A stretch of 64,000 nucleotides of DNA from Nitrospirota bacterium (GTDB lineage: Bacteria; Nitrospirota; UBA9217). Positions 5,653-61,450 of the stretch are shown here, in pieces. Each line of letters starts with the position of its first letter. The first letter of the stretch is position 1. The stretch is taken from positions 1 through 64,000 of the forward strand of contig CAVVOB010000030.1 of assembly GCA_963749655.1 (NCBI GenBank), read 5' to 3'. A model generated the notes under the pieces. It did not search any database. It was not told the origin of the DNA and was given only the letters and a program-made list of their open reading frames with translations. The translations under genes and the position numbers were made by a program.

Positions 5653-5755
5653 ATTGCGGATTGTAGATTTCGAATTGCGGAATGAAAATCGGGGTCAGTG
5701 TGCCGGTATTTAAGCGGTTTCACAAATCCGAAATCCGCAATTCACAATTCGAAAT
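5653..5755. repeat. Heptamer-periodic inverted repeat (ATTGCGG-type)
   Basis: attgcgg attgtag atttcga attgcgg ... tccgaaa tccgcaa ttcacaa ttcgaaa between cheY and cheA. Confidence 0.85.
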
Positions 5756-5761
5756 TTTATT

Positions 5762-8610: not shown

Positions 8611-8694
8611 GCAGAGAGCAGAGAGCAGAGAGCAGAGAGCAGAGAGCAGAGAGCAGAGAATCCTCCCCTCTGCGCCATGCCTTATGCGCTTTGC
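8611..8694. repeat. Heptamer-periodic inverted repeat: (GCAGAGA)x7 plus degenerate complementary arm
   Basis: Seven perfect copies at 8611-8659; cctctgc gccatgc cttatgc gctttgc at 8667-8694. Confidence 0.9.
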
Positions 8695-9370: not shown

Positions 9371-9459
9371 ATTGCAGATTGCGGATTGCGAATTGCGGAC
9401 CACGCACCGGAGGCGTACAATCGTTCGCGGCCGACATTTGCAGCCCGAAATCTACAATT
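9370..9459. repeat. Heptamer-periodic inverted repeat (ATTGCGG-type)
   Basis: attgcag attgcgg attgcga attgcgg ... cccgaaa tctacaa t. Confidence 0.75.
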
Positions 9460-13203: not shown

Positions 13204-15108
13204 ATGAAAAAGCACACATTCATTGTACTGATTATTCTGCTTTGGGCCTCGATTGCGGCGGCCCAGCAGGCTCCGGAGACCAAGACGCAGGAACCGAAGG
13301 GTGAGGTGTTCGAGGGGAACATAGGGCCGACCTACAACTGGGTGAACCTCGACGGCAGCAGCCGGGCCTCGGAGTATGAATACCTCAAAAACAGGGACAG
13401 CATCGGCACGGACCTTCACATCGAGTACGATCCGCTCCCGAATCGTTTTTCCATAGAGACGCACTACCTGAACAGCAAGGACTACTTCGGAGAGATGGAC
13501 TATGCGTACCGCGACGTGGTGCTCTTTAATTTTCTGGCCCGCGGCGTGTACCACAACCTCGATCACGTTTCTCTGGGCGTCGATGATCCCGCCACGACTT
13601 CGCCGAGCTTTACGGACCTGAACCCCGGCGACACCTATGCCATCGAGAACACCCTCCGCAAGGGATTTATCCGGTTCAAAACCCCGGACTTCCCCTTCCA
13701 TCTGTACGCGGACATGACGACCATCGACCGCACCGGCACGATACAGCAGCGCTTCCTGCGGAGCTTCACCAGCAGCCTGGACAAAGTATCGGAGTCCCGG
13801 GACATCGACTGGAGCTCGGAGGAGATCCGGACAGGCCTGAACAGTCACCTGGGGCCCGTTGAAGTCGATTACAGCCATACGGAGAAGAAATTCTCATCCA
13901 GCGGCACGGACCGGGTCCTCTCGGACATGATCGGCTCGACGACGCTCTACCACAACCTGGTGCCGGACCTGAAATCGTCCGTTGATACGATCAAGATCCA
14001 TACGTCGCTCACCGGCCGGATCGTAGCCTCGGCGAGCTATGCAGACGGCACGAAAAAGAACAGCGACAGCAATGCAAAGACCGAATACCAGAACTCGGCC
14101 GGCGACCTGACGCTCACGCCCCTGCCAGGTCTGGTGATTTCTGCAAAATACCGGCATTACGATACCGACAACAGCCACCCAGACACGATAACCATGACGA
14201 ACCTTTCGAGCCTGGTGAGCAACAACACCTTCAGTATCCGCGACTCCATTTCCTCGAAGCGCGACGTGGTGTCCGGCCTCGTCCGGTACCGCGTAACTCC
14301 GCGCCTGACGGTCAAGGGAGAATATGTGGTCGACGCGATCAGCCGGGACCTCGGGAGCGATCCGAGCCAGTGGGACGTTGCCCAGCGCACGTCCAAGTTC
14401 ACGGGCAAGCTCGGCCTCACGTACCGGATGATGAGCAAGCTGTTTCTGACTGCGGACTACAGCGCCACTCAGGTGGAAAATCCGGCTTACGCCGACGATC
14501 CCGATCACACAACCAATGCCAAGGCCACGGTAACCTGGTCGCCTCTTCAGCAGGTCATCGCGCTGGTGAGTTATGGCGATATCCAGGAGAAGCGAAGCGA
14601 CCTGACCGCGCCGACCGGCGGCGGGAACAGGAAGGTGGACCGGACCCAGACCCTCGGGAGCCTCACGTTCCTCGTGGGGAAAGGCTCTTCGATCACGGCA
14701 AGCTACATGTACTATCAGAACAAGACGAAGGAGACGCTCACCTGGACCGATGAATCGGGTAACTTCATTCTCGAGGACGGCGTCCCTTACAGCGATAAAG
14801 CCCAGGTCCTTTCCTTGTCCGGCAGCCAGGCCCTGTCCGAGGGCATTGTGGCGACAATCGACGCGAGCAAATGCTTCTCCAAGGGCAATTTCAGGGTGGA
14901 CGGGTCTGTGGCCGGAACGTCGGGCATCGACACCCTCTCGGACCTGAATGTGGTGGAGGACATTTACACGGCGGGACTGGAAGTGCAATTCAACAGGAAT
15001 ACGGGCAGCGATCTGCGCTACCAGTACCGGCAGTACGACGACCGGATCGACAACACCCAGGACGGCAGGGTGAATACGGCCATGGCCACATTTTACGTGA
15101 AGTGGTAG
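13204..15108 (+). CDS. MtrB/PioB-like outer-membrane beta-barrel porin
   Basis: Signal peptide, amphipathic beta-strand pattern, terminal aromatic (FYVKW), directly follows the decaheme gene. Confidence 0.8.
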   Translation: MKKHTFIVLIILLWASIAAAQQAPETKTQEPKGEVFEGNIGPTYNWVNLDGSSRASEYEYLKNRDSIGTDLHIEYDPLPNRFSIETHYLNSKDYFGEMDYAYRDVVLFNFLARGVYHNLDHVSLGVDDPATTSPSFTDLNPGDTYAIENTLRKGFIRFKTPDFPFHLYADMTTIDRTGTIQQRFLRSFTSSLDKVSESRDIDWSSEEIRTGLNSHLGPVEVDYSHTEKKFSSSGTDRVLSDMIGSTTLYHNLVPDLKSSVDTIKIHTSLTGRIVASASYADGTKKNSDSNAKTEYQNSAGDLTLTPLPGLVISAKYRHYDTDNSHPDTITMTNLSSLVSNNTFSIRDSISSKRDVVSGLVRYRVTPRLTVKGEYVVDAISRDLGSDPSQWDVAQRTSKFTGKLGLTYRMMSKLFLTADYSATQVENPAYADDPDHTTNAKATVTWSPLQQVIALVSYGDIQEKRSDLTAPTGGGNRKVDRTQTLGSLTFLVGKGSSITASYMYYQNKTKETLTWTDESGNFILEDGVPYSDKAQVLSLSGSQALSEGIVATIDASKCFSKGNFRVDGSVAGTSGIDTLSDLNVVEDIYTAGLEVQFNRNTGSDLRYQYRQYDDRIDNTQDGRVNTAMATFYVKW

Positions 15109-29627: not shown

Positions 29628-31808
29628 TTACTCGCGTTTCATTTCCTTATTCATCTTGGCTTCCAGTAATTCGTACAACTTCGTTTCAAGAGCATCCAAA
29701 ACCACTCGATAATCGACGCTTTCTGTCTCCGATACTACACTGCCTTTTAAGAGCGACTTCCACAGTATTTTGCCAGTGCTCACCGAGACGGCCTTTATAT
29801 CGATATCCTCATAACATGTTCTTAACGGGTGATGCACCCCCATTGCTGGGATCTCAGCTATAACCACCGCGTCGGCGCTTACCAACTTTCCGACATACTG
29901 AGCTCTCTCCTTGGTCAAGCCGGTTAGCGATAACTTTTGCTCATTCAGTATCGCATCAAGTTTCGCCCTCTCGATGCAATCATATCCCAGTCGCAGCAAC
30001 ATAAGCTCAAGCTTGTCGCTATTCCTTTTCGCAACACCCTGCCCCTCGTGCGACCGCTCGTTCAGCCACTGGATGTGATGTTCAACAGGCAGCACGACAT
30101 ATGCCTGGACCCGATCCTTGCTCATTTGCGGGTCCATATACGTGCTCTCTTTCAAATCGTAATTGAAGCTGGAAATGTCCGGTCGTGCAAAACGTCCAAC
30201 GAGCGACTTGTCATTGGGATTGTAATAGCGGATCCTTTCATAGTCTGCAAGCGCCTTGTCCTTCTGGCCGGTTTTTTCATAACAACCGGCCCGTTGCTTC
30301 AACCATTCGATACGATCGCCGAACTTTAATGCCGCTGAATACGATGCAATCGCTGCCGAATACTCGCCACCACGAAAATGGTCCTCAGCCCGGAAAGCAT
30401 CAGCCTCTCCCTGCAAGGTCCACAATAGCGGGTTAACGCTAGCATAGGTCATTTCTTGTCTTGCGAACCCCGACATGGCTTCATAAGAACCTCCCCATTT
30501 AGGCTGCAAGGAGGCAATATATTCGTGCCTTACCTGGAGTGTCCGTTTATCGTTCTCCACCGCCTTTTGAAGCATCTGTTTTGCCGTAAAAGGCATCTTC
30601 GACGCTGCGGCAATCCTCACCAGCCAAGCATAGGCAGGTGTGAGCGACGGATTTTTGCTGATTGCGGTTTCAAGGTCCTTGGCAGCGTCATTGTAGCGCT
30701 GCTGCTGGGCGACAAGCTTTTCCGCAGGGACCCCGCTTACATATGTGCCGTCGCGCGCTATGTATCCATCGGGTATTTTGAAAATTCCTCTCGCAGCATA
30801 GGCGATATATGAACCTGTCTTCTCTACCCATAAATCCATGTCTGACGGTAAAAAGAATTTTTTGTCCGCAAAGTTGTCAAATCCTTGCTGCAGAACGGAC
30901 TCATACTGTGCATCCTTCTTATATAGATCCAGCGCATTTTCAAACCATTTTTCAAGTGCTGTATAATCATGAGTTGAAACTTGCTGTACGATATTGTATC
31001 CGGGAGCGCCCTTAAATTCTGACATGTGCTTCAGGGCCATATTATTCATTTCGACCTGCTGCCATCCGGTCTTACCCTGCGAACCGCTGCTCTGGTCAAG
31101 GGCATTGGCAATTGCACTATGGACACCCCAGGCAAGAAGACTGCCGTTTACGTCGGGCGAACCAAAAGTGCCAGCCACTGCAAATGCCTTCATATTGATC
31201 GCATCGATCTGAAAAAAGGGCAGGTAATCTTGGGCTTTCTTGAAACGAAAATGAAAGTTTCCAATTCCGACGCGCTTTATTTCCCAGTCGGTGTGCGATA
31301 TAACTTCATCGCCATCGACGACGATAGTGCATGTATTTCCGTCTTGTTCATATTTCAGGAGTGCTTTTTTGAGCTCCAGGCGGATCCAAGGCGGCGCCGA
31401 AGAAGGTTGAGATGGATTATAATCAGGCGTAAAATGAGTGACGGTAACCTGACCGATCGGTATTTTAGTCCGGCTTCGGTCCCCAAAGGATCCTCTCCGC
31501 ACACAAAAAGCTGTTTTCTCATTTGCATCAATTTCCCAGAAGATATTATTCCAGGCCTTATTCCGGACGTGGTAGATATCGCGACCGACTTGTTTCACCT
31601 CGAAGCTCGTGAGAGGCGTATAAGGTCCCGGCTGACCTTTGCCGAACGACAAGGCGAAAACAACTTGCTCTTGATCGGGAGAAATGACTATTACAGCGCT
31701 GTTAATATCAACTGTTATTCGTCCGTAAACCGCCTCTCCCGAAGCTATTTGAGTCAGGAACGTCAATACTAACACCACTACCAGATTGCATAATTGTATC
31801 CGGAGCAT
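29628..31808 (-). CDS. Secreted DUF4034 + TPR protein with C-terminal CsgG/FlgO-like domain
   Basis: SLQPKWGGSYEAM motif, TPR helices, IERAKLDAILNEQKLSLTGL...GKLVSADAV; GGAGG RBS. Confidence 0.7.
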   Translation of the reverse strand: MLRIQLCNLVVVLVLTFLTQIASGEAVYGRITVDINSAVIVISPDQEQVVFALSFGKGQPGPYTPLTSFEVKQVGRDIYHVRNKAWNNIFWEIDANEKTAFCVRRGSFGDRSRTKIPIGQVTVTHFTPDYNPSQPSSAPPWIRLELKKALLKYEQDGNTCTIVVDGDEVISHTDWEIKRVGIGNFHFRFKKAQDYLPFFQIDAINMKAFAVAGTFGSPDVNGSLLAWGVHSAIANALDQSSGSQGKTGWQQVEMNNMALKHMSEFKGAPGYNIVQQVSTHDYTALEKWFENALDLYKKDAQYESVLQQGFDNFADKKFFLPSDMDLWVEKTGSYIAYAARGIFKIPDGYIARDGTYVSGVPAEKLVAQQQRYNDAAKDLETAISKNPSLTPAYAWLVRIAAASKMPFTAKQMLQKAVENDKRTLQVRHEYIASLQPKWGGSYEAMSGFARQEMTYASVNPLLWTLQGEADAFRAEDHFRGGEYSAAIASYSAALKFGDRIEWLKQRAGCYEKTGQKDKALADYERIRYYNPNDKSLVGRFARPDISSFNYDLKESTYMDPQMSKDRVQAYVVLPVEHHIQWLNERSHEGQGVAKRNSDKLELMLLRLGYDCIERAKLDAILNEQKLSLTGLTKERAQYVGKLVSADAVVIAEIPAMGVHHPLRTCYEDIDIKAVSVSTGKILWKSLLKGSVVSETESVDYRVVLDALETKLYELLEAKMNKEMKRE

Positions 31809-38528: not shown

Positions 38529-39107
38529 GTGAAACAGGCGATCAGAAAACAGGCTCTGGCAGCGCGCGACAGCATGCCGACGGAACAGCGGAGAAAGAAG
38601 AGCCGGGAGATTGAAGAACGGCTCTTTGCCCTTCCTGAATTTCAATCGGCGCGGGTCGTCATGTTCTTCGCTTCATTCCGCAGTGAAGTCGAAACTGAGC
38701 CGATGATCCTCCGGGCGCTCCGGGCCGGCAAACGGGTGGTCCTGCCGAAAGTAACAGGCAAGGAACTTGCCTTATACGAGATCGGGGATTTCGGCGCCGA
38801 TATGGAAAGAGGCGCATGGGGAATCCCGGAACCGAAGACGTTCGCTCCCGCGAAGCTGGATGAGATCGATCTCATCATCATGCCGGGCGCGGCTTTCGAC
38901 GAGCAGGGAAACCGGCTTGGGTACGGCGCGGGTTTTTATGACAAGCTGCTGTCCGCATTCAAGCGAACAGCCGTCGCACTTGCTTTTGAAGCGCAGATCG
39001 TATCGAATGTTCCCGTTGCTCCCCATGATATTCCGGTCGGAAAGATCGTGACCGAGAAAAGGGTAATAACAACGCAGAGGGCAGAGGGCAAAGGGCAGAG
39101 AGCATAG
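38529..39107 (+). CDS. 5-formyltetrahydrofolate cyclo-ligase
   Basis: [29 protein letters not shown]. Confidence 0.95.
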
Positions 39108-39152
39108 CGCGTGGGGCAAAAGCAGTTACGCTAGGCCCCCTCCGCACTCTGC
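39074..39152. repeat. Heptamer-periodic inverted repeat (GCAGAGG-type) overlapping the 3' end of the cyclo-ligase gene
   Basis: gcagagg gcagagg gcaaagg gcagaga gcatagc ... cctccgc actctgc. Confidence 0.8.
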
Positions 39153-43823: not shown

Positions 43824-43853
43824 CGTGAGGAGTGAGGAGTTAGGCGTAAGGGG
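43824..43853. repeat. Heptamer repeat, purine arm only (GTGAGGA-type)
   Basis: gtgagga gtgagga gttaggc gtaaggg after metF. Confidence 0.7.
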
Positions 43854-45637: not shown

Positions 45638-45720
45638 AGGGGCAAGGGGCCAAGTAGCAAGGGGCCAGGGAACAGTGAACGACGTTTCCGGACCCCGTGC
45701 CACCTGGTCCTTGGACCCTG
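45638..45720. repeat. Approximately 8-mer-periodic inverted repeat (GGGCCAAG-type)
   Basis: ggggcaag gggccaag tagcaag gggccagg ... cctggtcc ttggaccc. Confidence 0.7.
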
Positions 45721-45733
45721 AAGTCAAGGTCCC

Positions 45734-46505
45734 ATGGGTTTCACCATAGCAGTTGCAGGCAAGGGCGGCACGGGCAAGACCAGCCTCTGCGGCCTGACCA
45801 TTCGATATTTGACAGAGAAGAAAAAGGGGGCCGTGCTCGCCGTCGACGCCGACGCGAACGCAAACCTCCACGACGTGCTCGGGGCTGAATGTCCACGCCA
45901 CGGTCGGCCGGCTGCGGGAAACCTCTCTCGAAGCCATCAAGTCCACTGCTCCGCGTCCGGGCGGCATGAGCATGGAGCAGCTCTTCGATTACCAGATCCA
46001 GCAGGCGCTCGTCGAGGCAAGAGGCTTCGACCTGCTCGTCATGGGCAGGCCCGAGGGCGCGGGCTGCTACTGCGCGGCAAACAACATCATCCGCAAATAC
46101 ATGGACAAGCTGGCCGACACCTATCCCTACACGGTGATGGACAACGAGGCCGGTCTTGAGCATCTTTCCCGCCGCACGACGCAGGACACGGACCTGCTCA
46201 TGATCATCAGCGATTCTTCGGTGCGCGGCATCATGACCGCGGGCCGGATCGGCGGACTGGTCAAAGAGCTGAATCTGAACGTCAAGCGAACGGTGCTGAT
46301 CGTGAACCGCGTGCAGGACGGCACCAGAGAAGACAAGGCGCTTCTCCAGGCGATCGGACAGCAGGGCGTGGAATTCGCGGGCTTTGTTCCCGCAGACGAG
46401 ATGATCTTTGAATACGACTTGAACGGCAGGCCGCTTGTCCAGCTTCCTGCAGATTCGAAGGCGCTGAAGAGTTTTTTCACCATCATGGACAAGCTCGTGC
46501 CGTGA
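45734..46505 (+). CDS. cooC: Second CooC/AcsF ATPase (apparent +1 frameshift near 45884)
   Basis: GKGGTGKT in the first frame; GRPEGAGCYC and DNEAGLEHLSR in the second; one extra G in GGGG joins them. Confidence 0.85.
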
Positions 46506-46589
46506 AGCGTGAAAAGTAAGAGGTGAAACGTGAAACGCACGCCGCAGCCGGCTTTTTACATTTTCCTTTTCACGTTTAACGTTTCACGC
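46501..46589. repeat. Heptamer-periodic inverted repeat (CGTGAAA-type)
   Basis: cgtgaag cgtgaaa agtaaga ggtgaaa cgtgaaa ... tttcacg tttaacg tttcacg. Confidence 0.85.
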
Positions 46590-46594
46590 CGCTC

Positions 46595-47479
46595 ATGAAC
46601 AAAACCGTCGCCATCATAGGCGCAGGCCGTGTCGGCAGCTCAATCGGTTTTCTGCTGAAACAGGCAGGATACCCGATAGCGGCGGTGACGGCCCGTTCGA
46701 CGGCATCCGCGGAAAAAGCAGCGGCTGTTGTAAGCGGGGCAGAGCCCCTGACGGATGTGGTAAAGGCGGCGTCGCGGGCCGACATCGTTCTTATCACAAC
46801 GCCGGACCGCGCGATCAAAGAGGTGTGCGACACGATCGCAGCGGGCGGAGGGTTCAAAAGAGGCTCCCTGGTCGCGCATACCTCGGGGGCCCATACGCTG
46901 GACCTTCTTGAGGCGGCTTTAACGCGCGGCGCGAAGCGGGCGGTTATTCATCCGCTTCAATCCGTGCCGAGCGCGGAGCAGGGCATTCGGACGCTCCCGG
47001 GATCGTATTTTCGCATCGAAGCCGATTCCGAGGCGCTGGCAACGGCGCGCAGCATCGTCGGGGCGCTGGGCGGAATCGAACTGGAGATGCCGAAGTGGAG
47101 CTCCGACCAGGACTCCGCAGCCCTCTACCATGCGGGCGCAGTTGCGGTATCCAATTATTTCGTAGCCCTTGTTGATTACGGATTGAAGTTTTACGAGGCG
47201 CTGGGAGCGGACAGGAAAGAGGCGCTCAAGGCTGTTCTGCCGCTCATCAAGGGGACGCTTCATAACATGGAAACCCTGGGCGTCCCCGGGGCACTGACGG
47301 GGCCGATCATGCGGGGCGACGGCGAAACGGTGAAGCGTCATCTGGACGCCATGGAGCGGCGTACTCCGGAGCTTATGCGTCTCTACCGGGAACTGGCAAT
47401 CCAGACGGTCAGGTCAGCCAAGGATAAGGGCAGTATAACGGCGCAGACGGCGGAAGAACTGCTTAGGTTACTTCGGTGA
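46595..47479 (+). CDS. Rossmann-like + DUF2520 protein (PanG-type ketopantoate reductase candidate)
   Basis: IIGAGRVG, HTSGA, HPLQS, LYHAGAV..SNY, LTGPIMRGD. Confidence 0.85.
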   Translation: MNKTVAIIGAGRVGSSIGFLLKQAGYPIAAVTARSTASAEKAAAVVSGAEPLTDVVKAASRADIVLITTPDRAIKEVCDTIAAGGGFKRGSLVAHTSGAHTLDLLEAALTRGAKRAVIHPLQSVPSAEQGIRTLPGSYFRIEADSEALATARSIVGALGGIELEMPKWSSDQDSAALYHAGAVAVSNYFVALVDYGLKFYEALGADRKEALKAVLPLIKGTLHNMETLGVPGALTGPIMRGDGETVKRHLDAMERRTPELMRLYRELAIQTVRSAKDKGSITAQTAEELLRLLR

Positions 47480-47549
47480 GGAGTCAGGCGTAAGGAGTGA
47501 GGAGATTTTTCTCTGTTTTTCCCCTTACTCCTAACATTTCACTCCTCAC
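47476..47549. repeat. Heptamer-periodic inverted repeat (GTGAGGA-type)
   Basis: gtgagga gtcaggc gtaagga gtgagga ... cccttac tcctaac atttcac tcctcac. Confidence 0.88.
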
Positions 47550-48462: not shown

Positions 48463-49403
48463 ATGGCACTCGTAATACCTAAGGAAACATACAGCGGAAA
48501 GATCTACAATGTACAACTCGGCAGCGGCGCAAAGACCGTGACGATCGGCGGGGCCAGCGCGCTCCCCTTTCTTGGGTTCGAAGGCGCGTTCCCGAACAAG
48601 CCCGCCGTCGCGCTCGAAGATCATGGACATCGCGCCGGACGACTGGCCCGAGACGGTGAAGAAGGCCGTTCGGCGGAGCGTCGTCCAATCCCGTATCGTG
48701 GGCCAAGTTCTGCCAGCAGAGCGGCGCGGACATGGTCGCGCTCAGGCTCATGGGCACCCATCCCGACCAGAAGAACAAAAGCGCCGAAGAAGCGGCCAAG
48801 GTGGCGGCGGAAGTCGCGGCTGCGATCGATATCCCGCTCGTGATCCTGGGCTGCGGTCATGTGGAAAAGGACACCCAGGTGCTCCAGGCCGTCGCAGCTG
48901 CCACACGCGGCAAGAACTGCGCCATCGGCAAGGCCGTGGAAGAAAACTACAAGACCATCGCGGCAGCAGCAATGGCGAACGACCACAAGCTGATCGCCAT
49001 GAGCCAGCTCGACGTGAACCTGGCAAAGCAGCTCAACATCCTGCTCTCCCAGATGGGCTTCGACAAGGAGCGGATCATCATGGACCCCATGTCGTCCGCC
49101 CTGGGCTACGGCCTCGAATACACCTACAGCGTGATGGAGCGCATCCGCCTCGCCGCGCTCCTGCAGAACGATCCCATGATGCAGACGCCGATCGTGTGCG
49201 ACATCGGCCTGAACGTCTGGAAGGTGAAAGAGACGATGGCGCCCGAGGTTGAAATGCCGGAATGGGGCGGCCTCGAAGACCGCGCCCTGGCCTGGGAAGC
49301 GGTCACCGCCTCCGCCATGGTCACTGCCGGCGCTGACATGCTGATCATGCGGCATCCCGGCGCAGCGGCAAAGGCAAAGGAAGTCATCGCGGAACTGATG
49401 TAA
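48463..49403 (+). CDS. acsD: Corrinoid Fe-S protein small subunit (apparent +1 frameshifts near 48619 and 48671)
   Basis: KETYSGKI..V.LG, DVNLAKQLN, IIMDP..ALGYGLEYTYSVMERIR, MRHP. Confidence 0.9.
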
Positions 49404-49408
49404 GGACC

Positions 49409-49485
49409 GTAAAGAGCATAGTGCAGAGCGCATAGTGCAGAGCGCAAAGCGTAAGTGTTCTACGCCATGCTCCATGCCCTCTGCG
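49409..49485. repeat. Heptamer-periodic inverted repeat (GCA.AG-type)
   Basis: gcatagt gcagagc gcatagt gcagagc gcaaagc ... gccatgc tccatgc cctctgc. Confidence 0.82.
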
Positions 49486-50867: not shown

Positions 50868-50874
50868 AACGCCC

Positions 50875-50940
50875 GTGAGGCGTGAGGAGTGAGGAGTGAG
50901 GGGTTGCTTATTCCCCTTACGCCTAACCCCTTACTCCTTC
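50875..50940. repeat. Heptamer-periodic inverted repeat (GTGAGGA-type)
   Basis: gtgaggc gtgagga gtgagga gtgaggg ... cccttac gcctaac cccttac. Confidence 0.88.
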
Positions 50941-50964
50941 CGGCATTTCTAAAGGAGTCGTTCC

Positions 50965-53919: not shown

Positions 53920-54039
53920 CGTGAAACGGGCAACGTAAAACGTAAAACGTGAAACGGGTAACGTCAAGCGTGAGATGTAAGATCTTGTACCTTTCCCCTT
54001 TCACGTTTTGTCTAACCTTTCACGTCTGACGTTTCACGC
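53920..54039. repeat. Heptamer-periodic inverted repeat (CGTGAAA-type, about 9 units in left arm)
   Basis: cgtgaaa cgggcaa cgtaaaa cgtaaaa cgtgaaa cgggtaa cgtcaag cgtgaga ... tttcacg tctgacg tttcacg. Confidence 0.88.
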
Positions 54040-54054
54040 ATTTTTGGGGTGACC

Positions 54055-55833
54055 ATGAGTAAGGACGTTTCAATAAAAATCTGCATGGGAACAGGCGGCA
54101 TTGCCGCGGGCGGCGAAGCGGTGATGTCCTTGTTTACCAAGACGCTTGCCTCCGCCGGCGTCAAGGCATCGGTGGAGAGAAACTGCTCGGTCCACAAAGT
54201 GGGGTGCCGCGGCTTCTGCGCCCGCGACGTGCTCGTGGACGTAATTGTCGACGGCGTCAAGTCGACCTATCAATACATCAAGCCGGACATGGTCGAGCGG
54301 ATCGTGCAGGAGCACATCCTCGGGGAAACGCCCGTGGGCGATTGGCTCGTCAAGGACGATTATCATACGTTTCATGACAAGCAGATCAAGGTCGTTCTGT
54401 CCGACTGCGGTGAGGTGGACCCCGAGGACATCAACTCCTATATCGGCCGCGGCGGGTATGAGGCGGCAAAGACGGTGCTCACCTCGATGGCCCCCCAGGG
54501 CGTCATCGACATCATCAAGGCGTCGGGTCTTCGCGGCCGCGGCGGCGCCGGTTTCCCCACGGGGACCAAATGGGACATGGCGATCAAGGCTCCGGGGCCC
54601 GCCAAATATCTGATCTGCAATGCCGACGAAGGCGACCCGGGCGCCTTCATGGACCGCTCTGTCGTCGAGGGCAATCCGCACGCTGTGCTCGAAGGCATGA
54701 TCATCGGCGCCTACGCCATCGGAGCGCCCTACGGCTACGTGTACATCCGGGCGGAGTACCCCCTTGCCGTTGAACGCCTCCACCTCGCGATCAAGCAGGC
54801 AAAGGAGCAGGGGTACCTCGGCAAGAACATCCTCGGCAAGGGCTTCGATTTCAATATCAAAGTGAAACTCGGCGCAGGCGCCTTCGTGTGCGGCGAAGAA
54901 ACCGCGCTGATCGCCTCCATCGAAGGCAAACGGGGACAGCCGCGCGCCAAGCCGCCCTTCCCGGTCCAGAAGGGGCTGTGGGGCAAGCCGACCATCATCA
55001 ACAACGTCGAGACCCTCGCCAACGTACCGTACATCATCCGCAGGGGCGCGGAGTGGTATGCAGGCATGGGCACCGAGAAGAGCAAGGGGACCAAAGTTTT
55101 CGCGCTGACAGGCAAGATACAGAACTCGGGCCTGATCGAAGTGCCGATGGGCATCCCGCTCAAAGAGGTCATCTACGATATCGGCGGCGGCATCGAAGGC
55201 GGAAGGAAACTCAAGGCCGTCCAGACCGGCGGTCCTTCCGGCGGATGCATTCCTGCGAGCATCGTGGAAACCACGCTCGACTATGAGTCCCTGGGCAAGG
55301 TCGGTTCGATCATGGGCTCCGGCGGCATGGTGGTCCTGGATGAGACGGACTGCATGGTAAACGTCGCCAAGTACTTCCTCCAGTTCACGCAGTCGGAGTC
55401 CTGCGGGAAGTGCGTGCCCTGCCGCGTGGGCACCAAGCGGCTTCTCGAGATCCTGACCCGGATCACCGAGGGCAGGGGCAGGGAGGACGATATCGAGCTC
55501 CTGGAGAGTCTGAGCAGCGACGTGAAGACGTCGTCCCTCTGCGGCCTCGGCCAGAGCGCGCCCAACCCGGTCCTCTCCACGATCAAGTATTATCGCGACG
55601 AGTACGAGGCACATATTTTCGAGAAGCGCTGTCCCGCAGGCGTGTGCAAGGACCTCCTCTCCTACAGCATCGTCGAGCAGTTCTGCAAAGGCTGCACCGC
55701 CTGCACCCGGGTCTGTCCGGCCGGCGCGATCATCGGCGAGAAGAAGAAGCCGCACAAGATCGTCCAGGACATCTGCATCAAGTGCGGGGCCTGCTTTGAG
55801 ACCTGCAAGTTCAAGGCGATTAAAAAAGGCTGA
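54055..55833 (+). CDS. NuoF/HydB-like FMN/NADH-binding subunit with C-terminal ferredoxin domain
   Basis: GLRGRGGAGFPTG, NADEGDPGAFMDR, CGEETAL, GGPSGG, ESCGKCVPCR, two C-terminal CxxCxxCxxxC. Confidence 0.93.
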   Translation: MSKDVSIKICMGTGGIAAGGEAVMSLFTKTLASAGVKASVERNCSVHKVGCRGFCARDVLVDVIVDGVKSTYQYIKPDMVERIVQEHILGETPVGDWLVKDDYHTFHDKQIKVVLSDCGEVDPEDINSYIGRGGYEAAKTVLTSMAPQGVIDIIKASGLRGRGGAGFPTGTKWDMAIKAPGPAKYLICNADEGDPGAFMDRSVVEGNPHAVLEGMIIGAYAIGAPYGYVYIRAEYPLAVERLHLAIKQAKEQGYLGKNILGKGFDFNIKVKLGAGAFVCGEETALIASIEGKRGQPRAKPPFPVQKGLWGKPTIINNVETLANVPYIIRRGAEWYAGMGTEKSKGTKVFALTGKIQNSGLIEVPMGIPLKEVIYDIGGGIEGGRKLKAVQTGGPSGGCIPASIVETTLDYESLGKVGSIMGSGGMVVLDETDCMVNVAKYFLQFTQSESCGKCVPCRVGTKRLLEILTRITEGRGREDDIELLESLSSDVKTSSLCGLGQSAPNPVLSTIKYYRDEYEAHIFEKRCPAGVCKDLLSYSIVEQFCKGCTACTRVCPAGAIIGEKKKPHKIVQDICIKCGACFETCKFKAIKKG

Positions 55834-55840
55834 TCGAACC

Positions 55841-55875
55841 GTCAGGAGTCAGGAGTGAGGAGTCAGGAGTCAGGT
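55841..55875. repeat. Left heptamer arm flanking the four-helix-bundle gene
   Basis: gtcagga gtcagga gtgagga gtcagga gtcaggt. Confidence 0.9.
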
Positions 55876-55883
55876 GAAAAGGA

Positions 55884-56249
55884 ATGGACAAGCCACACAA
55901 AAAATTGAATGTGTGGAAGTCGGCCATTGAGCTTGTACTCGAAATATACCAGCTTACTCAGTTGTTTCCGGGAGAAGAAAAATATGGTCTCGCCAGCCAG
56001 ATGAAACGGGCCGCCGTCAGCGTGGCTAGCAACATAGCGGAGGGCGCAGCGAGAAAGACAAAGAAGGAATTTATTCAATATCTGCACATGGCACAAGGTT
56101 CAATCAGTGAATTGGATACGCAGCTTGAAATAACAAAACAACTTAAGTACGTACCAGTAGACAGGGTGTCTGCGGTAGATGTGTTGATGGAGAAAACAGA
56201 CAAAATGCTGAGCGGATTAATTAAACATCAGCAATCTCCTCACTCCTGA
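55884..56249 (+). CDS. Four-helix-bundle protein (23S rRNA IVS protein / bAvd-like family)
   Basis: L.VW, FP.EEKYGL.SQ..RAAVSVASNIAEG, F.QYL..A.GS..ELDTQL; AT-richer than its neighbours. Confidence 0.92.
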   Translation: MDKPHKKLNVWKSAIELVLEIYQLTQLFPGEEKYGLASQMKRAAVSVASNIAEGAARKTKKEFIQYLHMAQGSISELDTQLEITKQLKYVPVDRVSAVDVLMEKTDKMLSGLIKHQQSPHS

Positions 56250-56264
56250 CACCTTACTCCTTAC
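56237..56264. repeat. Right heptamer arm (complementary to 55841-55875), contains the gene's stop codon
   Basis: tcctcac tcctgac accttac tccttac. Confidence 0.9.
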
Positions 56265-56288
56265 TAAACGAACGAATGCGGAGTAAAG

Positions 56289-58961
56289 ATGGCTAACCTC
56301 ACTATAAATGGAAAACAAATAACGGTACCTGACGGCACCACGGTACTCGACGCCGCGCGCCGGAACGACATTTACATCCCGACGCTCTGCGACGACCCGC
56401 GGCTCGAGCCCTACGGCGGCTGCAGGCTCTGCCTCGTTCAGATCAAGGGCATGCCCCGTCCGGTCACGGCCTGCACCACGCCGGTCACCGAGGCCATGGA
56501 AGTGGAGACCTCGAACGCGCAGATCGAGCGGCAACGGCGCACGATCGTGGAGCTTCTGCTCTCCGACCACCCGAACGACTGCATGGTGTGCGAGCGGGCC
56601 GGCGACTGCACGCTCCAGGAGCTTGCTTACTTCCACGAAATCCGCACGAACCGCTTTGCCGGTGAGCGCCGGACCTATGCCAAAAAGGACGCGAATCCCT
56701 TCATCGAACGGGACATGGAAAAATGCATCCTCTGCGGCAAGTGCGTGCGGGTGTGCGAGGAGATCCAGGGCGTTGCCGCAATCGACATCGCGAACCGCGG
56801 ATTTACGGCAAAAGTTGCCACGGCCTTCGAGAAGGACCTGAACTGCGAGTTCTGCGGCCAGTGCGTTTCCGTCTGCCCCACCGGCGCGCTGATGGGCAAG
56901 GAGTCGCTGGGCAAGGGCAGGCAGAAGGACGTGAAGCAGGTGGAGACCGTGTGCTCCTACTGCGGCTGCGGCTGCAACCTGACGCTCCACGTGAGCAGGA
57001 ACGAAGTGGTGCGCGTCACGTCGCGCCCCGACACGGTGAACGAGGGCTGGCTCTGCGTCAAGGGCCGCTTCGGATTCAGTTTCATCAACAGCCCCGACAG
57101 GCTCACGACGCCGCTCATCAGGAAGGACGGCAAGCTCGTTCCCGCCTCGTGGGACGAGGCGTTCGGGTACATCGTCGACAAACTCACCGCCATCAAGGCG
57201 AAGCACGGCCCCGACGCCATTGGCGGCCTCTCCTCGGCCCGGTGCACGAACGAGGAAAACTACCTGTTCCAGAAATTCATCCGCGCGGGGATCGGCACGA
57301 ACAACGTCGATCACTGCGCGCGCCTCTGACACAGCTCGACTGTGGCCGGTCTGGCCACCGTATTCGGCTCCGGGGCAATGACGAACTCGATCGCCGAGAT
57401 CGAGAACAATGACGCGCTGTTCGTCATCGGCTCGAACACCAAGGAAAGCCATCCCATCATCGCGCTCCGCATGATCAAGGCAAAGCGCAAGGGCGCCAGG
57501 ATCATCGTTGCCGATCCGCGGCGGGTGCCGATGGTGCGCTTCGCCGACATCTGGCTGCAGCACCGCCCGGGCACCGACGTCGCGCTCCTGAACGGCATGA
57601 TGCACGTGATCGTGAAGGAAGGCCTTGTCAAGAAAGACTTCATCGAAGCCATGACCGAAGGATTCGACGACGCATTCCGAAAGAACCTCGAAACCTACAC
57701 GCCCGAGGCAGCGTCGAAGATCACCGGCGTTCCAGCGGACCTGATCGTGAAGGCGGCCCGCATGTACGGCAGTGCCGAGCGGGCGGGCATCTATTACACC
57801 ATGGGCATCACCCAGCACGCCCACGGCACGGAGAACGTGTTTTCCATCGCCAACCTGGCCCTCATGACCGGAAACCTCGGCAAGGAGAGCGCAGGCGTCA
57901 ACCCGCTTCGCGGACAGAACAATGTCCAGGGCTCGACGGACATGGGCTGCGTGCCGAACAACTATCCCGGCTATCAGCGCGTCACCATCCCGGCGATCCG
58001 GGAGAAGTTCGAGGCCCTCTGGAAGGTGAAACTCTCGGACAAGGAAGGCATGACCGCTACGGAGATGATCCCGGCCGCGGAGAAGGGCTCTCTGAAGGCG
58101 CTGTATATCATGGGTGAGAACCCCGTGGTCTCGGACCCCAACTGCGCTCACACCGTGAAGGCGCTCAAAACGCTCGAGCTTCTGGTGGTCCAGGACATCT
58201 TCATGACCGAAACGGCGGAGCTGGCGCACGTTGTCCTGCCCGGCTCATCCTTCGCCGAGAAGGTCGGAACGTTCACGAACACCGAGCGCCGCGTCCAGCG
58301 GGTGAGAAGGGCGGTCAACTCGCCCGGGCTTGCCATGAAAGACTCGCTCATTATCATGGAGCTGTCGAAGCGCATGGGCTATGAAATGAACTACTCGCAC
58401 ACCGTCGAGGTCTTCCGCGAGATCGGCCAGGCCTGGCCTGCTCTTGCCGGCATGAGCTACGCGCGGCTCGAGGACGGGGGGCTGCAGTGGCCCTGCCCCA
58501 CGCACGATCATCCGGGCACGCAGTTCCTGTTCAAGGGCGGGTTCCCGCGCGGGAAGGGGCGTTTCTCGCTCGTTACGTTCAAACCGTCCCATGAGGAGAC
58601 GGACAGCGAGTATCCGTTCCTCCTGACCACCGGACGGACGCTCTTCCAGTATCACACCGGCACCATGACCAGGCGCGTCAAGGCGATCAACACGATATCG
58701 CCCGAGGCCTTCATCGAGATCAATCCCGAGGACGCAAAGGCCCTTGCCGTCCGGGAGGGCTCGAGCGTGAAGGTCAGCTCGCGGCGCGGTGCGATCACGC
58801 TCAAGGTCATGGTGTCCAAGCGGCCCGCGAAAGGCGTCGTGTTCATCCCCTTCCATTTCAAGGAAGCGGCGGCCAATGCGCTCACGAGCGCCAAGGCCCT
58901 TGATCCGATCGCAAAAATTCCGGCCTTTAAAGTATCGGCAGTAAGAATCGAACAGGCATGA
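56289..58961 (+). CDS. fdhA: Selenocysteine-containing formate dehydrogenase alpha subunit with NuoG-like N-terminal Fe-S domains
   Basis: ORFs 56289-57329 and 57342-58961 are in frame: DHCARL-TGA-HSSTVAGL; CSYCGCGC, PLRGQNNVQG, GTFTNTERR. Confidence 0.93.
57342..57358 (+). promoter_or_regulatory. Bacterial SECIS hairpin
   Basis: GTGGCC-GGTCT-GGCCAC 12 nt after the in-frame TGA (57327-57329); similar to the fdhF SECIS. Confidence 0.85.
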
Positions 58962-58963
58962 CC

Positions 58964-59069
58964 CGGGAGACGTGAGACGTTAAACGTGAAACGGGAGACG
59001 GGAGAAACAATGCCCGTTGAACTAAAGATGAGTAAGAGGTTCATTTTCGTTTCACCTCTCACCTTGCAC
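58964..59069. repeat. Heptamer-periodic inverted repeat (CGTGAGA-type)
   Basis: cgggaga cgtgaga cgttaaa cgtgaaa cgggaga cgggaga ... tttcacc tctcacc. Confidence 0.8.
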
Positions 59070-59548: not shown

Positions 59549-59612
59549 CGTGAAATGTGAGGAGTAAGGCGAGAGGTCGTTTTAATCTCCTTACTCCTAA
59601 CACCTTACTACT
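59549..59612. repeat. Heptamer-periodic inverted repeat (GTGAGGA-type)
   Basis: gtgaaat gtgagga gtaaggc gagagg ... tccttac tcctaac accttac. Confidence 0.82.
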
Positions 59613-59647: not shown

Positions 59648-61415
59648 ATGGCACTCGATCCAACGAAGCATGCAGACTGGGAAATTGCGGAAGATTCAGA
59701 AACACGAATGAAGCCGATCACCGAGATCGCGAAGAAGATGGGGCTCAACGACGACGAGCTTCTGCTGCACGGTCACTACATCGCCAAGGTGGATTTCAAG
59801 AAGGTGCTGAAGCGCTTCGAGGGCAAGCCCGACGGCAAATACATCGACGTCACGGCCATCACCCCGACGCCGCTCGGCGAAGGCAAGTCCACCTCCACCA
59901 TCGGCCTCACCCAGGGCCTGGGCAAGCGCGGCAAGAACGTGATCGCCGCGATCCGCCAGCCTTCGGGCGGCCCGACCATGAACATCAAGGGCTCGGCGGC
60001 CGGCGGCGGCCTTTCGCAGGTCATCCCGCTCACGCCGTTCTCCCTCGGCCTCACCGGCGACATCAACGCCATCATGAACGCCCACAACCTCGCCATGGTC
60101 GCGCTCACGTCGCGGATGCAGCACGAGTTCAACTACAACGACGAGCAGCTTGCGAAGACGGAAACTGAAGCGCCTCAACATCGACCCGCACAACGTGGAG
60201 ATGAAGTGGATCATGGACTTCTGCGCCCAGTCGCTGCGCGAGATCGTCATCGGCATGGGCGGCAAGACGAACGGCTTCATGATGAAGTCCGGCTTCGCCA
60301 TCGCCGTGTCGTCGGAAGTGATGGCCATCCTCGCCGTCGCCAGGGACCTGAAGGACATGCGCGAGCGCATGGGCCGGATCGTCGTGGCCTACAGCAAGGA
60401 CGGCTCCCCGGTGACGACCGAAGACCTCGACGTCGCCGGCGCCATGACCGCCTGGATGGTCGAGGCCCTGAACCCGAACCTGCTCCAGACCATCGAAGGC
60501 CAGCCCGTGTTCGTGCACGCCGGCCCCTTCGCCAATATCGCCATCGGCCAGTCCTCGATCATCGCCGACCGCATCGGCCTGAAGCTCGGCGACTACGTCG
60601 TGACCGAGTCCGGCTTTGCCGCCGACATCGGCTTCGAGAAGTTCTGGAACCTGAAGTGCCGCATCTCGGGCCTGAAGCCCCATGCCGCCGTGGTCGTCGC
60701 CACGATCCGCGCGCTCAAGTGCCACGGCGGCGCGCCCATCCCGGTGCCGGGCAAGCCCATGCCCGCGGAATACAAGGGCGAGAACGTCGGCTGGGTCGAG
60801 AAGGGCTGCGAGAACCTCATCCACCACATCAAGACCGTGAAGAAGGCGGGCATCAATCCCGTGGTCTGCATCAACGCCTTCTACACCGACACGGACAACG
60901 AGATCAAGGCCGTGCGGCAGGCTCGCCGAGGCAGCAGGCGCCCGCGTGGCCCTTTCCCGTCACTGGGAAAAGGGCGGCGACGGCGCCCTGGAATTCGCCG
61001 ACGCCGTCGTCGACGCCTGCAACGAGAAGAACGACTTCAAGCTTCCTCTATGAGCTCGATACCCCGCTCCGGAAGCGCATCGAGCTGATCGCCAAGGAAG
61101 TGTACGGCGCCGACGGCGTGGACTATACCCCTGAGGCCGAGGCAAAGGCGAAGAAGATGGAAGCGGACCCCGAGACCGCCAAGCTCGGCACCTGCATGGT
61201 GAAGACCCACCTGTCGCTCACGGACAACCCGATCCATCAAGGGCGTGCCCAAGGGCTGGAGGCTCCGCATCCGCGACATCCTGACCTACAAGGGCGCGGG
61301 CTTCGTCGTCCCGGTGGCAGGCACGATCACGCTCATGCCCGGCACGTCGTCCGACCCGGCCTATCGCCGCGTGGATGTGGATGTGGAGACGGGGAAGGTG
61401 AAAGGCGTGTTCTAA
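59648..61415 (+). CDS. fhs: Formate-tetrahydrofolate ligase (apparent +1 frameshifts near 60157, 60921, 61042, 61232)
   Basis: [46 protein letters not shown]; segments are collinear across frames. Confidence 0.9.
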
Positions 61416-61421
61416 TAAAAC

Positions 61422-61450
61422 AGTGAGAAGTAAAAAGTGAGAAGTCAGGT
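61422..61450. repeat. Heptamer repeat, purine arm only
   Basis: agtgaga agtaaaa agtgaga agtcagg. Confidence 0.6.

Follow-up and report, generated by a model that had tools for sequence, protein, structure and literature searches.

A PF05635 four-helix-bundle gene held between inverted heptamer arms at a bacterial nuoF–fdhA junction

A small gene of the four-helix-bundle family PF05635, enclosed by two inverted arrays of seven-base words, separates the nuoF-like gene from fdhA in a Nitrospirota bacterium and forms with its arms a real cassette that does not arise by chance. We analysed it in a window of 64,000 nucleotides, the start of contig C30 in an assembly of 4.27 Mb. Comparison with homologous loci establishes the architecture of the cassette, its patchy presence, the pairing of protein and word, the local clustering of same-word elements, and purifying selection on the homologues. 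On balance, and with modest confidence, we favour the reading that this is a widespread cassette, held by some relatives and missing from others at one and the same operon junction, whose protein likely recognizes its own word and is thereby the likely driver behind the spread of the gene-less hairpins made of that word.

The cassette and its protein

The 121-aa gene lies in a 455-bp stretch that opens after the nuoF-like stop (55833) and closes before the fdhA start (56289) (Table 1). As the first-pass annotation had noted, it is richer in AT than its neighbors, with 44.8% GC versus 61.3% in the nuoF-like gene and 63.0% in fdhA. The left array (55841–55874) consists of 4.9 copies of the unit GTCAGGA and begins 8 nt past the nuoF-like stop, while the right array (56236–56265) holds 4.3 copies of CTCCTTA. 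The best inverted pair, 55847–55877 with 56235–56265, is 31 nt long with a complementarity of 84% and a spacing of 357 nt. Inverted period-7 arrays thus frame the gene as had been claimed, but the TCCTGAC unit assigned to the right arm occurs there exactly just once, and two positions vary between units. The arms reach into the translation signals of the cargo: AGGTG at 55872–55876, within the last left-arm word and 7 nt upstream of the ATG, probably acts as an SD-like site, and the stop codon of the gene (56247–56249) falls within the right arm. A GCGGAGTA-like site resembling the GGAG of the fdhA spacer is found in most relatives that have a spacer and is missing where nuoF and fdhA abut.

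Table 1. Coordinates of the cassette, its host genes, and neighboring heptamer elements in the window
Feature	Position	Strand	Basis
Left arm, ~5 NGTNAGG words	55841..55877	+	Array and inverted-repeat search
PF05635/TIGR02436 gene for a four-helix bundle of 121 aa (pI 9.1), predicted to fold like pentameric Xcc0516 (2GSC)	55884..56249	+	Profile match, predicted model
Right arm, inverted, ~4 words, overlapping last codons and stop of cassette gene	56235..56265	-	Array and inverted-repeat search
Spacer with GGAG ribosome-binding site of fdhA	56266..56288	+	Sequence, relatives compared
Upstream host gene, NuoF-like NADH-binding subunit	54049..55833	+	Profile match
Downstream host gene, formate dehydrogenase alpha subunit (fdhA)	56289..58961	+	Profile match
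Gene-less hairpin, NGTNAGG word, overlapping upstream stop, before acsE	47476..47549	+	Fold z = -6.1
Gene-less hairpin, NGTNAGG word, between acsC and acsB	50873..50943	+	Fold z = -6.2
Gene-less hairpin, NGTNAGG word, more degenerate, before fhs	59550..59608	+	Fold z = -2.8
Lone left arm, NGTNAGG word, before panB, without partner arm	43824..43851	+	Fold z = -0.5
Gene-less hairpin, related CGTGAAA word	46501..46588	+	Array search, fold
Gene-less hairpin, related CGTGAAA word, between nuoE-like and nuoF-like genes	53920..54040	+	Array search, fold

The host operon belongs to a co-directional cluster at ~43.8–61.4 kb that comprises panB, thyX, acsE, acsD, acsC, acsB, the NuoE- and NuoF-like subunits, formate dehydrogenase, and fhs. 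Within fdhA, an in-frame UGA (57327–57329) at the CARL-U-HSSTV site is likely read as selenocysteine. The cassette sits between protein genes and not inside an rRNA gene; the 23S gene of the source genome is unassembled. No intrinsic terminator (short GC stem plus U tract) is present on the + strand of 55700–56400, and 43000–64000 has no Rfam match. The cassette carries no transposase, PF05635 being the sole cargo. The window had been described as free of transposase and reverse transcriptase (RT), and indeed neither is named among its 52 called proteins (E ≤ 1e-30; ~20 of them without a name). The single RT of the source genome (C33:19865–20530) resembles a group II intron protein. A genome-wide search for the Y1 transposase family gave nine matches, all outside the window, and the seven inspected show no heptamer array within 150 nt upstream. 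As side observations, apparent frameshifts, possibly assembly errors, affect 45734–46505 (which we take to be a cooC-like gene), 48463–49403 (acsD), and 59648–61426 (fhs), and a GSU2204-family CXXCH (seleno)protein-like gene at 13204–15105 adjoins a decaheme cytochrome.

The cassette protein matches Pfam PF05635 with 126.8 bits (cut-off 33.8) and TIGR02436 with 122.2 bits (cut-off 24). Its predicted model (pLDDT 95.9) superimposes on Xcc0516 (2gsc_B) with a TM of 0.94 and an rmsd of 0.8, and on Avd (4DWL) with a TM of 0.76 at 11% identity; neither Pfam nor fold comparison matched it to an HUH tyrosine transposase or a GIY-YIG nuclease. The earlier label "bAvd" does not hold at the curated cut-offs, as the protein scores under them (34 of 40 bits for PF22296, 34.7 of 80 for NF033474) and is not Avd proper. 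Because the structures 2GSC and 2RLD contain five chains each and the model lies so close to 2GSC, the protein may well be homopentameric, with a basic ring like that of 2GSC and Avd. P29, Q39, R42, S46, N50, E53, and E76 are kept in at least 80% of 146 homologues, E76 in 146 of 146. Substitution patterns show purifying selection on the homologous genes, with a median dN/dS of 0.08 over 35 pairs, many of them from one Nitrospira site; for the window gene itself, synonymous sites are saturated.

Heptamer words in the genome and across the family

The source genome contains 427 arrays of period 7 versus 3 of period 5 and 21 of period 11, and the heptamer arrays are therefore not due to chance. 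By rough gene calls, 350 of 431 strong arrays are intergenic, and their length peaks at 31–32 nt (115/431). AGTT runs hold three, four, five, or six cores in 28, 33, 38, and 4 cases, the five-core count depending on how cores are drawn; runs of other words hold four full 5-base cores. We detected 117 hairpins. Arm polarity is fixed (81 pairs versus 3, over five words), and by rough gene calls hairpins are not enriched between co-directional genes (89/110 versus a background of 1729/2231). A 390-nt loop between AATGCGG arms on C21 has no long ORF. A-to-N mutagenesis was considered as the origin of word variation and dropped, as A is present at four-way variable positions on either strand.

A hairpin stands at nearly every junction of the acs–fdh cluster. 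The elements placed earlier at 47476, 50875, and 59549 do share the unit type of the cassette: all three are gene-less hairpins of the NGTNAGG word. Moreover, the window cassette has 4 of the 26 remaining NGTNAGG sites inside a distance of 15 kb (0.19 expected, p = 3e-5). Such same-word clustering is seen at three of the five cassettes of the source genome, at two by one site each, and is absent at the remaining two. Relatives also carry NGTNAGG arrays a few kb from their nuoF–fdhA junction although the junction has no gene, and the window cluster may thus be inherited with the operon. The nearby gene-less hairpins look like separate gene-less insertions or remnants. Arrays or hairpins of the words AGAGCAG, ATTGCGG, AGGGNCA, and CGTGAGA are found at further window junctions (8611–8659, 5724–5756, 9371–9459, 39074–39110, 45638–45719, 49413–49454, 58964–59005, and 61416–61445).

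The surmise that the other four-helix-bundle genes of this genome would also have period-7 inverted flanks was borne out for the stand-alone genes. TIGR02436 has seven matches in the source genome, five stand-alone and two of a long fusion type; all five stand-alone genes are framed by inverted arms, with five different words, and the fusion-type genes (C30:183261–183473 and C13:201863–202069) have no heptamer arms. The former of these two contains an in-frame internal insert that is of low complexity and resembles an inverted repeat, and the cassette paralogue at C20:75814–76074 has an apparent frameshift, possibly an assembly error. On C14, a gene-less heptamer hairpin (31448–31553) is inserted into the ATPase-domain coding sequence of a histidine kinase and keeps its reading frame, ~200 bp upstream of a cassette with the same word. 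This in-frame position beside a cognate cassette suggests that the placement of elements behind stop codons reflects a selective filter rather than strict targeting.

We then asked how general the arms are in a sample of 114 family loci (5 from the source genome, 2 junction loci, and 107 from the top of the family match list, fusions omitted) plus 60 other loci. A match was present at 173 loci and was full length at 148, leaving 146 genes after removal of one duplicate and one short-flank locus. Inverted-repeat scores of at least 12 were reached by 88 of 96 family genes and 46 of 50 genes from other phyla (134/146) versus 37 of 400 swapped flanks, and scores of at least 18 by 93/146 versus 5/400. 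The best period of the arms is 7 in 109 and 8 in 26 of the 146. Inverted arms also occur at 31 of 34 loci on viral contigs and, read by eye, at homologues on two cyanobacterial plasmids. The 32 plasmid records with a match are mostly cyanobacterial; 50,697 phage records gave none. One Picosynechococcus plasmid (L326:1400–1900) carries a cassette with 8-mer-like arms between cas10 and cmr3, in agreement with family genes noted inside cas operons in parts of PMC3936711. A count of co-orientation around the 146 cassettes (75 with both neighbors co-oriented) was set aside because the crude ORF caller had miscalled the window locus.

At the sequence level, the word tracks the protein and not the host genome. 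Among 123 loci with clear arms, arms are similar in 90% of the 92 cross-genome pairs above 70% protein identity, in 52% of those at 60–70%, and in ~1% of the 6155 pairs below 40%, many of the high-identity pairs sharing one orthologous site; the pairing also follows from plain co-inheritance. Same-genome paralogues, 23% identical at the median and including no recent identical copies, share arms in 1 of 118 pairs. Proteins of the window subfamily are accompanied by NGTNAGG-like arms at 10 or more unrelated junctions; the subfamily sits at cheY–cheA, amidohydrolase–AIM24, gmd–epimerase, T2SSE–T2SSF, GATase–His-biosynthesis, reductase–thiI, and other junctions. Some side branches of this subfamily have 8-mer arms and the rest mostly NGTNAGG-like ones. 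Words are not exclusive, as TCAGGAG arms flank another subfamily as well. With 117 hairpins in one genome, a gene that simply fell into a background hairpin is conceivable, and the heptamers would then have no functional link to the protein. The pairing data largely refute this notion, which we consider highly improbable: all five genes of the source genome have arms, built in each case from the subfamily's word and not from the one most frequent in the genome, and paralogues hardly ever share arms.

Genomes rich in arrays (at least 10 matches to two word patterns) make up 39 of the 46 with a full or near-full gene versus 3 of the 18 without, in a classification of our own in which related genomes are not independent and assemblies are incomplete. 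The exceptions are those three genomes with arrays and no gene, and seven with a gene and few arrays of the two words tested.

Junction occupancy, RNA, and reverse transcriptase

The nuoF–fdhA junction had been singled out for comparison in relatives, and this comparison shows a patchy presence. Junctions were extracted after a DNA search of 64 family genomes, and the tree keeps 33 relatives, excluding G033 (abutting, on a long branch), G016, operons that are paralogues, and junctions interrupted at the end of a contig. The two genes abut with a gap of 2–5 bp in 24 of the 33, are separated by spacers of 30–109 bp in 8, and enclose a cassette in one (G063), whose protein is 63% identical to the window protein; a gene stably conserved without arms is not what these relatives show. 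Seven of the eight spacers hold word remnants (NGTNAGG-like, ATTGCGG-like, or GACGCGG-like), and one holds none. At least six state changes are required on the junction tree, and the window operon groups with an abutting operon (support 84/92). A clade of the two loaded operons gives an AU p of 0.14, and a single old insertion followed by repeated losses is not rejected by the AU test; monophyly of the three nuoF–fdhA cargo proteins gives p = 0.055. Additionally, G017 and G039 have cassettes at the equivalent junction of paralogous operons. The relatives are too distant for a target duplication to be read.

Other junctions behave similarly. In genus g12, a junction unrelated to this one carries an intact 8-mer cassette in two genomes, a frameshifted copy in another, and in three more a gene-less hairpin built from a different word. 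At a g10 junction, the four genomes read have either a cassette, a cassette that has decayed, a gene unrelated to it, or another hairpin. These varying occupants indicate that junctions are refilled by different elements and that gene-less hairpins are not simply a cassette minus its gene. The idea that hairpins represent empty sites before insertion fails, since most cassette-free junctions are 2–5 bp gaps without a hairpin and some have a hairpin of another word. Taken at the level of sequence comparison, these data support a unit of gene plus arms that operon junctions acquire and lose. The proposed excision from mRNA finds no support in the G–U comparison described below.

The position of the hairpins can also be explained by a host regulatory system, in which the protein would be a repeat-binding post-transcriptional or chromosome-organizing regulator, the hairpins selected operon sites, and its own arms autoregulatory, with movement being incidental through recombination with the host operon. 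The strong purifying selection and the presence of a hairpin at almost each acs–fdh junction fit such a role, as does the placement of the 72 hairpins close to co-directional neighbors, which begin at a median of 7 nt beyond a stop codon and leave 23 nt to the following start codon. In Geobacter metallireducens, moreover, paired heptamer sites were put forward as sites for a global regulator (PMC2700814, in part). We nevertheless regard this explanation as quite unlikely, because 18 of the 64 family genomes, several of them 97–100% complete, have no full-length gene, decayed copies are common, the word at one junction differs between close relatives, and one hairpin lies in frame within the histidine-kinase gene.

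In the transcript, the arms could define an mRNA intervening sequence: they would pair in the operon RNA, and RNase III would free a loop of ~400 nt that adjusts the stoichiometry of the fdh subunits or serves as a mobile RNA. A precedent is the Coxiella burnetii 23S intervening sequence (IVS), whose ORF belongs to the same protein family (S23p) and whose stem of 28 bp contains tandem heptamers, the first of them being where RNase III cleaves, as given in parts of PMC4990558. The terminal inverted repeats of the window cassette are able to form a predicted stem of ~30 bp, with an arm duplex of -41.4 kcal/mol; the 455-nt insert folds with its arms paired (z = -3.7, 0/100 shuffles as stable), and the source genome encodes RNase III (rnc on C24). 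Own arms also pair better than swapped ones among close relatives (18.8 versus 17.5, p = 0.012) and for NGTNAGG (0.80 versus 0.73), but own and swapped pairing are equal for two words and own pairing is lower for one. The sense strand shows no excess of G–U over A–C, the counts being 132:111 for 105 cassettes and 82:83 for 72 hairpins, and mismatches are mostly non-wobble. Further, the gene stop lies inside the right arm, so that translation would open the stem, and a cut left unligated would break up an operon whose tight coupling is kept in 24 of 33 relatives. Excision from the mRNA is thus an unlikely, though not negligible, explanation. The single RNA run that we compared had 0.07 of words in common, with 626 of 950 contigs less than 90% alike; it gave no cover of the cassette interior, and its sole joint across the cassette, containing 34 foreign letters, fits an abutting junction of another organism.

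The fold shared with Avd at 11% identity raises a further scenario, in which the protein would act as an Avd-like cofactor that recruits an RT in trans, and the arm-bearing RNA would be copied back into the chromosome. An Avd–RT complex does make cDNA from RNA (PMC6182149, in part), and the source genome has its one RT. However, an RT occurs in 24 of the 46 genomes with a cassette gene versus 10 of the 18 without, no RT match was found in the flanks of 132 homologous loci (one query), and no RT is seen in G021, G047, or G042, all of them near-complete and rich in cassettes, although multi-copy introns may be unassembled. We therefore consider retro-copying very unlikely.

Known systems and a working model

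With the ORF-bearing 23S IVSs, as documented for Coxiella in parts of PMC4990558, the cassette shares the protein family, a length of ~430–450 nt, terminal inverted repeats of ~30 bp, heptamers upstream of the ORF, a GC content below that of the host, and a sporadic distribution. Unlike them, it is located between two protein-coding genes of one operon, its homologues are under purifying selection, and the family comprises many subfamilies with their own words and gene-less hairpins dispersed over the genome. The paired tandem hepta- and octanucleotide sites of Geobacter metallireducens, described as regulator sites, perhaps for IHF/HU, similarly occur as opposite-strand pairs whose distance varies, in gaps between genes (proB–proA, for example), and class 3 consists of five tandem heptamers MTYCTGA, the complement of which matches the TCAGGAG word seen here; the main text of that paper mentions neither "S23" nor "helix bundle" (PMC2700814, in part). 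Intergenic 7-base arrays are likewise known from Xanthomonas, where they often form convergent pairs, and from Nostoc and Beggiatoaceae. No PF05635 partner is proposed for them in the portions of PMC4692102 and PMC4679880 consulted, in which "helix" (PMC4692102) and "helix bundle" and "intervening" (PMC4679880) occur 0 times. In the open-access literature, we found no link of the PF05635 family to inverted heptamer arms beyond the Coxiella IVS; subscription papers or supplements (Table S4 of PMC2700814) could hold one. Within these bounds, we found in print the stem heptamers of the Coxiella IVS and the paired sites of Geobacter, but no family-wide tie of the PF05635 protein to heptamer arms.

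From DGR Avd, whose homology and function are treated in parts of PMC10053308 and PMC6182149, the cassette differs in having no RT, template, or variable repeat nearby and in the low identity and scores given above; fold, basic charge, and a predicted pentameric barrel are shared.

In its working, the cassette appears closest to systems that pair a gene with repeats. A gene flanked by cognate repeats, together with many gene-less copies elsewhere, is the hallmark of REP/RAYT and of NTS/Ssn, and both are found here. In REP/RAYT, a small gene is associated with cognate hairpin repeats that exist in many gene-less copies and vary with the protein lineage. The cassette protein departs from RAYT and Ssn in being all-helical, with no HUH or GIY-YIG domain and no known catalysis, and its repeats are arrays of 7–8 base words. 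Ssn nucleases, paired with NTS/SRM repeats, show the same organization of a small gene in cognate hairpin repeats, many gene-less copies, and a repeat that varies with the protein lineage (PMC11893778, in part). Our verdict from these comparisons is that the cassette is probably a variant of the ORF-bearing intervening sequences that works most like a REP/RAYT- or Ssn-type pair of gene and repeat.

The best reading, in our view, is a system of a gene and its cognate repeat, organized as in REP/RAYT or Ssn, with a likely pentameric protein that would read arms of ~5 words. In the corresponding model, the protein would assemble into a basic ring of five subunits resembling 2GSC and Avd, and each arm of 31–32 nt would present ~5 word cores, one per subunit, read most likely on single-stranded nucleic acid that is closed into a stem by the two arms. 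The ring would mark the cassette or a gene-less hairpin for copying and insertion, carried out either via its own invariant polar residues (Q39, S46, N50, E53, E76) or by a host enzyme, in the way that REP/RAYT and NTS/Ssn join protein and repeat. Insertions would survive mostly directly behind stop codons, where the left arm could supply a ribosome-binding site to the cargo gene and the downstream gene would retain its own, so that the operon still works. ORF-bearing 23S rRNA intervening sequences would then be cassettes that landed in rRNA.

A bolder version, which we put forward only tentatively and think rather improbable, holds that these cassettes are pan-bacterial minimal mobile elements without transposase, integrase, or RT, in which a pentameric Avd-like ring would read arms of five words by a code particular to its subfamily and would itself catalyse or direct the copying of cassettes and gene-less hairpins into operon junctions. 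They would be the source of the heptamer repeats of bacteria and of the ORF-bearing rRNA intervening sequences, and would provide a natural library of reprogrammable five-fold repeat readers. If it is true that the protein moves the element, the cassette would be a mobile unit without a recognizable mobility enzyme and may hint at the role of Avd before DGRs.

Three long-unexplained matters meet in this cassette: the PF05635 proteins themselves, the surplus of 7-base repeats seen across many bacterial genomes, and the question of where rRNA intervening sequences with an ORF come from. Should the protein recognize the hairpin words, the long unexplained heptamer repeats of bacteria would gain a protein partner; with an own word per subfamily and an arm length near five words, a word-swap binding test is now defined. 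The specific value of this locus is a well-sampled junction with loaded, remnant, and abutting states next to a cluster of same-word hairpins.

A parallel gene-plus-arms system is present in the source genome, where three GxxExxY (TIGR04256) genes, at C12:213511–213849, C30:320454–320798, and C17:24034–24372, all lie in inverted arrays of period 9 or 10. Hairpins resembling these period-9/10 arrays fill the nuoF–fdhA junctions of paralogous operons in genus g10.
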